From the NCBI RefSeq assembly GCF_003334765.1, contig NZ_QOWT01000073.1: 2,550 bases of DNA; one strand, 5' to 3'. Positions 1 to 2,550 of this stretch are shown here, one piece after another; positions within the stretch are counted from its first letter, which is position 1, and every line of letters begins with the position of its first letter. Source of the stretch: Escherichia coli. Its GTDB lineage: Bacteria > Pseudomonadota > Gammaproteobacteria > Enterobacterales > Enterobacteriaceae. Both the position numbers and the translations under genes were made by a program. The notes beneath the pieces are model-generated. The model saw only the letters and a list, made by a program, of their open reading frames with translations. It had not been told where the DNA came from and did not search any database.

Positions 1-1502
1 TTTAATCCGCGATATAACGAAGCTCCCGGAGCTGCGTAAGGTCTTTTTGGGCTTAATATTTGACAAAGGTCATAAGAATTTTTCTTTCCGAGACAGACTG
101 CACGAAGCGCTCTTTCCGCTGTGTTATTGTCCGCCTCCGCCAGACCGTCATCACAGAAGTTGCACAACGCAACCCAGTGCTTCCTGATATACCGGAACGC
201 ATCTCTCAGACGGCATTTTTTCGATAACGTGTGTTCTTTCTCCTGCATCAGCTTATACAGGGAAGTCAGTAGCGGTTTACTCTGCATTTGCCTGACCGCC
301 AGGCGTTCAGACACCGGCAACCCGCGTATTTCGTGCTCAATGGCGTACAGTTCGCCGATTAGTTTCAGTGCTTCTTCCGCCGTCGCGCTTTTGGTACTGA
401 TATATACATCGTGGATTTTGCGCCGCGCATGAGCCCAGCATCCTGCTTCCGTCAACGCGCCGCCTTCACGTTCGGCACTGAACAGCCGATCGTAACCTGC
501 GAACGCATCTGCCTGCAGGATACCCCGGAAGGGACGAAGGTGTTGCTCCGGATGTTTACCCTGATGGTCCGGTGAGTAGGCGAACCAGACCGCCGGAGGT
601 TCTGGCGAACCGGCATTTCGGTCATCCCGGACATACGTCCAGATATATCCTGTTTTCGCCTTCTTCCTGCCCGGTGCCAGTACTTTTACTGGTGTGTCAT
701 CAGTGTGAACCTTGCGGGTGTTCATCACATAACTGTACAGGGCATCATTCAGCGGCGTCATTAACTGGCAGCACGCATCAACCCAGTTGGAGAGTAAGGC
801 ACGGCTCAGTTCGACACCCTGGCGGGCAAAGATTTCACTCTGACGATACAGTGGCAGGTGTTCGCAGTATTTTCCCGTTAACACGCGGGCAAGTAACCCC
901 GGGCCCGCGATACCACGCTCTATCGGACGGGATGGTGCCGGTGCTTCAACGATGCAGTCACATTTTGTACAGGCTTTTTTTACCCGTTCTGTGCGGATCA
1001 CTTTCAGGGCGCTGCTCACCAGTTCCAGTTGTTCTGCACTGACTTCCCCCAGATAATCCAGCTCACCGCCACACTCCGGGCAACAGCTTTCTTCAGGCTC
1101 CAGGCGGTTTATTTCGCGGGGCAGATGCTCCGGTAACGGACGACGATGGCGTGACTGTCGCAACTGGCGGGGAACCTGCGGGTCATCCTCTCGCCCACTG
1201 TAACGATCGCTGTCCTGTTCGCGTTGCTTCAGCAGGGCCTCAGCCTGTTCAACTTCACGACGCAGTTTTTCAGAACGGGTACCGAACAGCATCCGGCGCA
1301 GTTTTTCTATCTGAGCCCGCAGATGTTCTATTTCCCGTTCATCTTCTTCGATCTTTTCTTCGGCACGTGCCAGCACAGAACGCAGGAAGGCCTCCGTCTC
1401 TTCAACCAGACTCAGTTGTTGGTCTTTCTGACGGAGGGCTTCAGCCTGCTCAGAGAGCAACCTTTCCAGCTCTGCGATGCGAATGAGGTATTTCTGACTC
1501 AT
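1..1502 (-). CDS. tnpC: IS66-family DDE transposase TnpC (Orf3), 3'-partial: 500 codons in window, no stop before the window edge
   Basis: ATG is the reverse complement of 1500..1502; I checked every codon in this frame down to position 3 and found no stop. Translation starts MSQKYLIRIAELERLLSEQAEALRQKDQQL (coiled-coil-like), then CPECGGEL...CTKCDC (zinc-finger-like), HTDDTPVKVL and LQADAFAGYDRLF (DDE core), GCWAHARRKIHD, and DNNTAERALRAVCLGKKN near the end. These are hallmark IS66 transposase motifs. Starts 30 bp after the tnpB stop. Confidence 0.9.
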   Translation of the reverse strand, partial: MSQKYLIRIAELERLLSEQAEALRQKDQQLSLVEETEAFLRSVLARAEEKIEEDEREIEHLRAQIEKLRRMLFGTRSEKLRREVEQAEALLKQREQDSDRYSGREDDPQVPRQLRQSRHRRPLPEHLPREINRLEPEESCCPECGGELDYLGEVSAEQLELVSSALKVIRTERVKKACTKCDCIVEAPAPSRPIERGIAGPGLLARVLTGKYCEHLPLYRQSEIFARQGVELSRALLSNWVDACCQLMTPLNDALYSYVMNTRKVHTDDTPVKVLAPGRKKAKTGYIWTYVRDDRNAGSPEPPAVWFAYSPDHQGKHPEQHLRPFRGILQADAFAGYDRLFSAEREGGALTEAGCWAHARRKIHDVYISTKSATAEEALKLIGELYAIEHEIRGLPVSERLAVRQMQSKPLLTSLYKLMQEKEHTLSKKCRLRDAFRYIRKHWVALCNFCDDGLAEADNNTAERALRAVCLGKKNSYDLCQILSPKRPYAAPGASLYRGL

Positions 1503-1532
1503 GACCGTTTTTATAATGCGGTCAGGAGTTTT

Positions 1533-1883
1533 TTACAACATTGTCAGTGAGTTAAGGCGGGATGTTTTTGGCTGACGCCAGTCCAGCTTATCGAGGAGCA
1601 TTACCAGTTGCGAACGGGTAATGGATACCTTGCCGTCACGTACCGCAGGCCAGATAAACTGGCCTTCCTTCAGGCGTTTGGTGAACAGGCACAGACCATC
1701 AGCATCAGCCCAAAGAATTTTAACGGTGTCACCCCGTCGGCCACGGAAGATAAACAGGTGGCCGGAGAAGGGATTATCATTCAGCACATGTTGTACCTGT
1801 TCTCCCAGTCCGTTGAAGGATTTACGCATATCGGTAACGCCGGCAACGAGCCAGATACGGGTACCTGATGGGAGTGAAATCAT
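1533..1883 (-). CDS. tnpB: IS66-family accessory protein TnpB (Orf2), 116 aa
   Basis: ORF-track protein MISLPSGTRIWLVAGVTDMRKSFNGLGEQVQHVLNDNPFSGHLFIFRGRRGDTVKILWADADGLCLFTKRLKEGQFIWPAVRDGKVSITRSQL..., which I recognise as the IS66 Orf2 type common in enterobacterial elements. Size and position between tnpA and the transposase fit. Confidence 0.9.
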   Translation of the reverse strand: MISLPSGTRIWLVAGVTDMRKSFNGLGEQVQHVLNDNPFSGHLFIFRGRRGDTVKILWADADGLCLFTKRLKEGQFIWPAVRDGKVSITRSQLVMLLDKLDWRQPKTSRLNSLTML

Positions 1884-2305
1884 CTTCCCCTCCCGCTCAG
1901 TTCGCGGATCAACACCGTGAGCAGCTCTGGCGATGGATTTTCCAGCGTCATGTTACCGTGACGGAACTCCACCTTGCAGGAACTGGCACTGACTCTGGTC
2001 TGAGTGGAAGTGGATAAAGACGGCGCAATGGCCGCCACAGGTTTTTTCTGCTCATCCGGCGTTATTTCTACAGGTAATAATTCAACGCCAGTGTCAGAAG
2101 AGGTCGTTACCGGAAGACGCCGCGAAACACGCCCTTCGTTCTGCCAGAGCCTGAGCCATTTGAAAATAACATTATCATTGACGCCATTTTCACGTGCAAT
2201 CTGTGCAACACAAGCTCCAGGTTGTGATGCCAGTTCCACCATACGAAGTTTGAATTCATTCGAATAGTTTTTACGAGGTTCTTTTCGCCAGTCCTGTAAT
2301 TCCAT
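1880..2305 (-). CDS. tnpA: IS66-family accessory protein TnpA (Orf1), 141 aa, HTH-like N-terminus
   Basis: ORF-track protein MELQDWRKEPRKNYSNEFKLRMVELASQPGACVAQIARENGVNDNVIFKWLRLWQ...; N-terminal region resembles the helix-turn-helix of IS3 OrfA / IS66 Orf1 proteins. First gene after the repeat; its TGA stop overlaps the tnpB ATG (ATGA at 1880..1883). Confidence 0.8.
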   Translation of the reverse strand: MELQDWRKEPRKNYSNEFKLRMVELASQPGACVAQIARENGVNDNVIFKWLRLWQNEGRVSRRLPVTTSSDTGVELLPVEITPDEQKKPVAAIAPSLSTSTQTRVSASSCKVEFRHGNMTLENPSPELLTVLIRELSGRGR

Positions 2306-2320
2306 ACTTAGATGTCCGTC

Positions 2321-2348
2321 TATATCAGATGGGCGTCTAAGTTACCAA
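2321..2348 (-). promoter_or_regulatory. Possible sigma70-like promoter for tnpA in the leader between the repeat and the tnpA start
   Basis: Minus strand reads TTGGTA (plus 2343..2348) then 16 nt then GATATA (plus 2321..2326). Weak match to consensus, and the resulting leader before the ATG at 2305 would be very short. Speculative. Confidence 0.15.
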
Positions 2349-2365
2349 TTTTCGTCTGATGGCTA

Positions 2366-2390
2366 TATACGGCGGTCAGTTTACGCTTAC
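2366..2390 (-). repeat. Terminal inverted repeat (left end) of the IS66-family element; outer boundary at 2390/2391, inner extent uncertain
   Basis: Plus strand 2371..2390 is ggcggtcagtttacgcttac; its reverse complement begins GTAAGCGTAAACTGAC. The flanking transposase reading frame runs right up to 2391 and then breaks. Length cannot be fixed without the partner repeat. Confidence 0.6.
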
Positions 2391-2550
2391 AAAACGATAG
2401 TGGCTCAGGCTCTCATTTTTCAGCGTTCCCCAGAAGCTTTCCATCGGAGCGTTGTCGTAACAGTTACCTTTACCCATAGAGGCGGATATAAGGGGAATGC
2501 CGGCAGAGCAGCGGCTTGCTGAACGTCAGCGAAAAACGAAACCGCTGTTG
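2391..2550 (-). pseudogene. IS3-family transposase (OrfB, DDE catalytic core) fragment, interrupted by the IS66 insertion; extends beyond the window
   Basis: Minus-strand translation of about 2391..2480 gives GIPLISASMGKGNCYDNAPMESFWGTLKNESLSHYRF. The CYDNA...ESF(W/F)..LK.E pattern, with K seven residues after the catalytic E, is the IS3-family signature. The frame ends exactly at the IS66 repeat junction. An in-frame TGA lies upstream at 2526..2528. Confidence 0.75.

Follow-up and report, generated by a model that had tools for sequence, protein, structure and literature searches.

Insertion sequence IS600, an IS3-family element of Shigella and E. coli, carries ORF1 and a 272-residue ORF2, and ISEc8, a member of the IS66 family, carries three ORFs, L0013, L0014 and L0015, with a 512-residue transposase (PMC2762410, Table 1). 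The literature documents nested multiple copies of ISEc8 and IS600 in virulence plasmids and islands of E. coli (e.g. PMC2762410). IS600, ISEc8, ISEc43 and ISEc45 are all catalogued insertion sequences, and the locus described here is an ordinary insertion sequence scar of an already known kind.

The window, i.e. the whole 2,550-nucleotide stretch of E. coli DNA that was analysed, ends on its right side in 160 nucleotides (2391-2550) that a sequence-only reading had taken for one IS3-family fragment, degenerate upstream of its DDE motif. Almost certainly it is instead three insertion sequences, IS600, ISEc8 and ISEc43, dead or nested, that meet in these 160 nucleotides, and not a single degenerate IS3 gene that fills them. 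The IS600 copy has two independent breaks: it has lost its N-terminal part at a blunt fusion with an ISEc8 remnant, and ISEc43 is inserted at 2390/2391. Sequences compared with the window include that of strain O55:H7 USDA5905 (L005), which is 99.65% identical to the whole window and of which 16 kb was used, reaching 8 kb past the right window edge, together with E. coli 042 (L002), an O100:H21 genome (L003), a full-length annotated IS600 (L004) and a longer ISEc8 tnpC fragment (L006). The features of the window are the following.

1-76, minus strand: end of ISEc45 (IS110 family), inserted in ISEc43 tnpC (L005 annotation and junction sequences)
77-1502, minus strand: ISEc43 tnpC, 475 codons, cut on its 3' side (NF033517, E = 8e-118, profile positions 4-346 of 387)
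1533-1883, minus strand: ISEc43 tnpB, 116 residues (NF033819 IS66_TnpB, E = 1.4e-34)
1880-2305, minus strand: ISEc43 tnpA, 141 residues (NF047595/NF038385 IS66 accessory TnpA; L005 annotation)
2306-2390, minus strand: left end of ISEc43 (IS66 family), its inverted-repeat tip GTAAGCGTAAAC ending at 2390 (free-standing copies match from exactly this base)
2391-2398, minus strand: one copy of the 8-bp target-site duplication ATCGTTTT (ISEc43 insertion into the IS600 remnant)
2391-2473, minus strand: IS600 (IS3 family) orfB remnant, 83 nt, truncated on both sides (identity to annotated full-length IS600)
2473-2474, no strand: blunt junction of IS600 and ISEc8 tnpC (three-way comparison of the window, L006 and L004)
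2474-2550, plus strand: start of an internal fragment of ISEc8 (IS66 family) tnpC, N-terminally truncated and running off the window (77/77 identity to ISEc8 copies)
2526-2528, minus strand: TGA stop, antisense of the ISEc8 TnpC codons CGT (2524-2526, Arg) and CAG (2527-2529, Gln) in the plus frame from 2461

The IS600 remnant

The IS3-family element was named as IS600 by protein search (native sequence ...SDRGSQYCAYDYRVIQEQFGLKTSMSRKGNCYDNAPMESFWGTLKNESLSHYRFNNRDEAI...). Window 2391-2473 is identical to the full-length annotated IS600 (L004 1649-1731) at 83 of 83 positions and codes for OrfB residues KGNCYDNAPMESFWGTLKNESLSHYRF, including the conserved KGNCYDNAPMESFWGTLK block, i.e. for no more than the surroundings of the third catalytic acidic residue. 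By tblastn, residues 330-356 of the IS600 frame match the window at 100% (27/27), and the remnant covers positions 308-334 of the 369 in the NCBIfam IS3 transposase profile NF033516. Across 2474-2550, identity to the native IS600 sequence upstream of GTAAAGG is 22/77, the random level. The NCBIfam IS3 model gives 35.8 bits for the 28 residues alone, 37.9 bits when the window's 25 upstream residues are added (with the stop replaced) and 68.5 bits when genuine IS600 upstream residues are added.

A frameshift-aware alignment of a full-length IS3 OrfB to sequence extended to the right had been proposed as a check of the earlier reading. When the whole IS600 OrfA/OrfB frame is compared by tblastn with the window and the 16 kb of L005, only residues 330-356 and 354-400 match, the latter in the part of orfB that lies beyond the inserted IS66 element. 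No frameshifted IS600 continuation is found within 8 kb past the right window edge in L005, and IS600 orfB is therefore truncated, not mutated.

Unlike IS600 itself, the window holds only 83 of ~1264 nt and lacks the left inverted repeat (IRL), orfA and the first and second catalytic Asp residues; in related genomes the leftover 3' 140 nt and right inverted repeat (IRR) lie 4.4 kb away, past ISEc43 (L005 12562-12748). Neither orfA nor the IRL occurs in the window or in L005, in which only the IRR (...CACCTCA) survives, at ~12748 and thus outside the window, and a complete DDE (rve) catalytic domain is missing, its Asp-bearing parts being absent across the 16 kb of L005. The IS3/IS600 arrangement of orfA and orfB with a programmed -1 frameshift, terminal inverted repeats (TG...CA) and a 3-bp duplication was likewise not found. 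With only the region around the third catalytic residue left, the remnant is not expected to be functional as IS600.

The ISEc8 fragment and the junction

The remaining 77 nucleotides of the window, 2474-2550, are identical at every position both to an ISEc8 tnpC fragment that reaches further upstream (L006) and to E. coli 042 (L002); translated in the plus frame that starts at 2476, they give IEADIRGMPAEQRLAERQRKTKPLL. Records that are 99-100% identical across the 491-nt fragment are annotated as "IS66-like element ISEc8 family transposase", and the L001 and L005 annotations label it "IS66 family transposase, missing N-terminus". The fragment runs in L005 for 150 codons to the TnpC stop and then to the ISEc8 inverted-repeat tip (GTAAGCGTACAGCG, L005 7586), 491 nt in all in the relatives. 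This 150-residue continuation matches the NF033517 IS66 transposase model (E = 2e-43, profile positions 259-383 of 387), scoring, as a fragment, below the full-length cutoff, and the 30 residues within the window are too short to score against the IS66 model. Identity of the ISEc8 TnpC fragment to residues 388-475 of the window's own TnpC is 52%. Membership of IS66/ISEc8 thus follows from the tnpC identity and the IS66 transposase model. Unlike ISEc8, this piece retains only the last ~150 codons, the 3' third of tnpC, and one inverted repeat (L005 7586), without tnpA, tnpB and the N-terminal ~360 codons of tnpC; a tnpA-tnpB-tnpC set with two inverted repeats beginning GTAAGCG is not present. 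It is a remnant, not an element, and is inverted relative to IS600 and ISEc43.

At 2473/2474 (slash at the junction) the window reads ...CAGTTACCTTTAC/CCATAGAGG..., ISEc8 reads ...CAGTTGTACG/CCATAGAGG... and the reverse complement of IS600 reads ...CAGTTACCTTTAC/GCGACATTG..., and this three-way comparison shows no microhomology. Only a weak TCTA(Y)GG similarity is seen, between the left neighbours in L003 and in the window. Megablast of the 160 nucleotides against 5426 complete E. coli genomes divides them between two unrelated homologies: query 1-87 (window 2550-2464) matches "IS66 family transposase" and query 77-160 (window 2474-2391), the sole IS3-matching part, matches "IS3 family transposase".

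A deletion or rearrangement would have cost IS600 its first ~980 nt and ISEc8 its first ~1.9 kb and joined the two bluntly, most likely through an IS-mediated event or non-homologous joining. This 5' truncation of IS600 would have preceded, or been independent of, the insertion of ISEc43. No allele with an intact IS600 or an intact ISEc8 at this place was found. The corrected reading shows where three insertion sequence remnants in the iha-espI virulence island begin and end, and it puts some of the events in sequence.

ISEc43 and ISEc45

Window 77-2390 belongs to IS66/ISEc43 by its inverted-repeat tip GTAAGCG, its tnpA-tnpB-tnpC set and the 8-bp target duplication seen in L005. Free ISEc43 copies match from 2390 down to 77 (query 160/161 to 2474) at 99.6-99.7%; unlike these, the window copy has its tnpC interrupted by ISEc45 at 76/77. 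The octamer ATCGTTTT occurs in L005 at 8153-8160 and at 12562-12569, flanking IS66-type ends (left end 8161, right tip 12561), and IS600 resumes straight after the second copy (AATAACCGGGATGAAGCC...). ISEc43 therefore transposed into the IS600 remnant, which would already have run, or later have come to run, from GTAAAGG to the right inverted repeat.

ISEc45 (window 1-76; L005 10475-11920) is found after ...GGAAAGAAAAAT of ISEc43 tnpC, and tnpC resumes at TACGTGTTCTTCGG 1.45 kb later in L005. Strain 102651, one of the nine complete genomes with the 160-nucleotide junction (see below), matches only as far as the ISEc45 junction (query 1-2476), a hint from sequence that ISEc45 may have arrived later. 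A site-specific ISEc45 event of the IS110 type at the IS600-ISEc8 junction was considered and rejected: the tnpC insertion site, GAAAAAT/TACGTG, is unlike CTCTATGG/GTAAAGG.

The right side of ISEc43 in L005 is further nested with another IS66-type tnpC fragment. This second, C-terminal tnpC fragment (L005 12140-12545) lies between the right inverted repeat of ISEc43 (12139) and a 16-nt stub, has an inverted repeat of its own, starts at ESWLREK and shares ~87% identity with ISEc8, an arrangement that suggests nested insertions followed, possibly, by recombination between IS66 copies. Stubs of 16 nt with an IS66-type inverted-repeat tip (CTCCGTTGACGCTTAC / GTAAGCGTTAACGGAG) adjoin the end of another IS66-family element twice, at L005 12546-12561 and in the reverse complement of L008 at 1577-1592, and it looks as if IS66 elements may insert 16 nt inside resident IS66 inverted repeats.

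Recurring breakpoints

Both breakpoints recur in other genomes with different partners. An IS600 remnant in the O100:H21 genome (L003 3001-3263) starts at the same base, G/GTAAAGGTAAC, as window 2473-2391. Both its neighbours differ from those in the window, native DNA downstream of espI/espP lying to the left and an outer-membrane-protein pseudogene to the right, and espI is inverted relative to the IS600 remnant as compared with L005. The ISEc8 tnpC fragment ends at the same base (...CCTCTATGG) in 042, 55989 and O104:H4 genomes (L002 4068-4090 vs window 2474-2482), and in these 042-type genomes the breakpoint borders directly on the IRL GTAAGCGTAAAGCC belonging to another IS66-family element, the IS600 piece being absent. 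The 042 element is a hybrid: its left ~400 nt (the IRL and most of tnpA) are distantly related to ISEc43 (L002 4088-4488 vs L005 8161-8562), and from the 3' part of tnpA on the two agree at 98%, with the ISEc45 insertion in tnpC common to both, which implies, on the alignments, a probable recombination between different IS66-family members.

Recurrence of the IS600 breakpoint in L003 and of the ISEc8 breakpoint in 042-type genomes is not predicted by a single random deletion and complicates the history given above. The IS600 sequence GTAAAGGTAA resembles the IS66 inverted-repeat tip GTAAGCGTAA, with 8 of 10 positions matching. It is conceivable, although we consider it doubtful, that the recurring breakpoints (IS600 G/GTAAAGGTAA; ISEc8 ...CTCTATGG) and the 16-nt inverted-repeat stubs reflect IS66-family transposases acting on or targeting sequences that resemble inverted repeats (GTAAnnGTAA). 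In that case, other insertion sequences would contain hot spots at which IS66 elements produce rearrangements reproducibly. The locus has no bearing on open biological questions, and the recurrence of identical breakpoints across genomes is its only mildly interesting residue.

The exact start of the IS600 remnant at this tip-like sequence, and the genuine IS66-family IRL that abuts the same ISEc8 breakpoint in 042-type genomes, would also fit a history in which an ISEc43 residing in an IS600 copy moved, together with an 83-84 nt passenger, into ISEc8 tnpC by using GTAAAGGTAA as a surrogate left end. Such a pseudo-end transposition is highly improbable, however, since in L005 the ATCGTTTT duplication and then the remainder of IS600 come after the right IS66 end, as is proper to an ISEc43 insertion in situ in a longer IS600 remnant, since the 8-bp ISEc8 target duplication that it calls for (CTCTATGG) is found at no right end, and since L003 has the same IS600 breakpoint with no IS66 element inside its IS600 remnant.

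Several further arrangements were set aside. Movement of the ISEc8 fragment and the IS66 element as a composite unit bounded by IS66-type ends is not accompanied by flanking 8-bp duplications in 042 or L005. An ISEc22 in yfaL (H82/L007) and IS66 elements beside other IS600 remnants (H153/H155; L010, L011) proved to be unrelated arrangements, and the 042 element (L008) is nested differently on its right side, which did not clarify the history.

The in-frame stop codon

The minus-strand frame from 2549 translates as NSGFVFR, stop, RSASRCSAGIPLISASMGKGNCYDNAPMESFWGTLKNESLSHYRFVSVN, stop. The first stop is the TGA at 2526-2528 (TCA on the plus strand), which does lie in the same frame as the CYDNA...ESFW...LK motif, as the sequence-only reading had stated, although 21 codons, and not about 15, separate it from the Cys of CYDNA. 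Beyond the motif the IS3-like frame exits at ...HYRF and enters GTAAGCGTAAAC, the IS66-family terminal inverted repeat. The other two minus-strand frames are open across 2474-2550, with no IS3 similarity found, and both were ruled out as a frameshifted IS3 continuation by tblastn and the HMM scores, in agreement with the earlier observation that no frame continues as IS3 upstream of the motif.

If the whole of 2391-2550 were IS3-family coding sequence, the TGA or a nearby frameshift would be the point lesion by which OrfB was inactivated, either ahead of the IS66 insertion or independently of it. The frame shared by the stop and the motif would fit such a lesion, as would the residues ...SASMGKGNC... 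that the junction creates, which by chance resemble the IS3-family consensus ...SMSRKGNC.... This explanation is nevertheless hardly credible, as upstream of 2473 neither the nucleotides nor the protein resemble IS600 or the IS3 HMM, and 2474-2550 agrees at 77/77 positions with ISEc8 tnpC, which lies on the other strand; alignments to intact IS600 (L004) and to ISEc8 (L006) refute it. The full-length IS600 natively reads ...FGLKTSMSR/KGNC..., and its upstream sequence is wholly unlike that of the window.

IS600 homology ends at 2473/2474, 53 nt before the TGA, and the bases of the TGA are identical in the ISEc8 tnpC fragments compared (L006 and E. coli 042). By our own calculation, 25 codons of unrelated sequence would hold one or more stops in any given frame with a probability of ~1-(61/64)^25 = 0.70, and because a stop is expected this often the TGA carries no statistical weight. 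Judged from these alignments, the minus-strand TGA is ISEc8 coding sequence read on the wrong strand and there is no lesion in IS3-family sequence. Thus the suggestion of damage upstream of the motif that is separate from the IS66-family insertion at 2390/2391 holds, but no nonsense or frameshift mutation lies behind that damage, and the lesion is not the TGA: homology to IS600 simply stops where the inverted ISEc8 tnpC fragment is fused to it. As a matter of annotation hygiene, a transposase motif with an in-frame stop can mimic a point-mutated pseudogene when it is really an opposite-strand breakpoint of two unrelated elements.

Occurrence and annotation of the junction

The 160-nucleotide junction is found at 100% identity in 9 of the 5426 complete E. 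coli genomes, in an island between iha and espI, and the genomes that carry it differ in serotype (O55:H7, O111:H21, NCTC9082 and others). Regions rich in insertion sequences are prone to misassembly, but a junction produced by faulty assembly or by a chimera in the source genome is practically out of the question here, since the same 160 nucleotides occur in nine independently sequenced complete genomes and the junction is therefore real and inherited. The NCBI pipeline, PGAP, annotates the pieces as separate pseudogenes. A 33-codon chimeric ORF, MGKGNCYDNAPMESFWGTLKNESLSHYRFVSVN, is predicted on the minus strand at window 2376-2477; ISEc8-derived DNA supplies its ATG, IS600 its body and the ISEc43 inverted repeat its stop.
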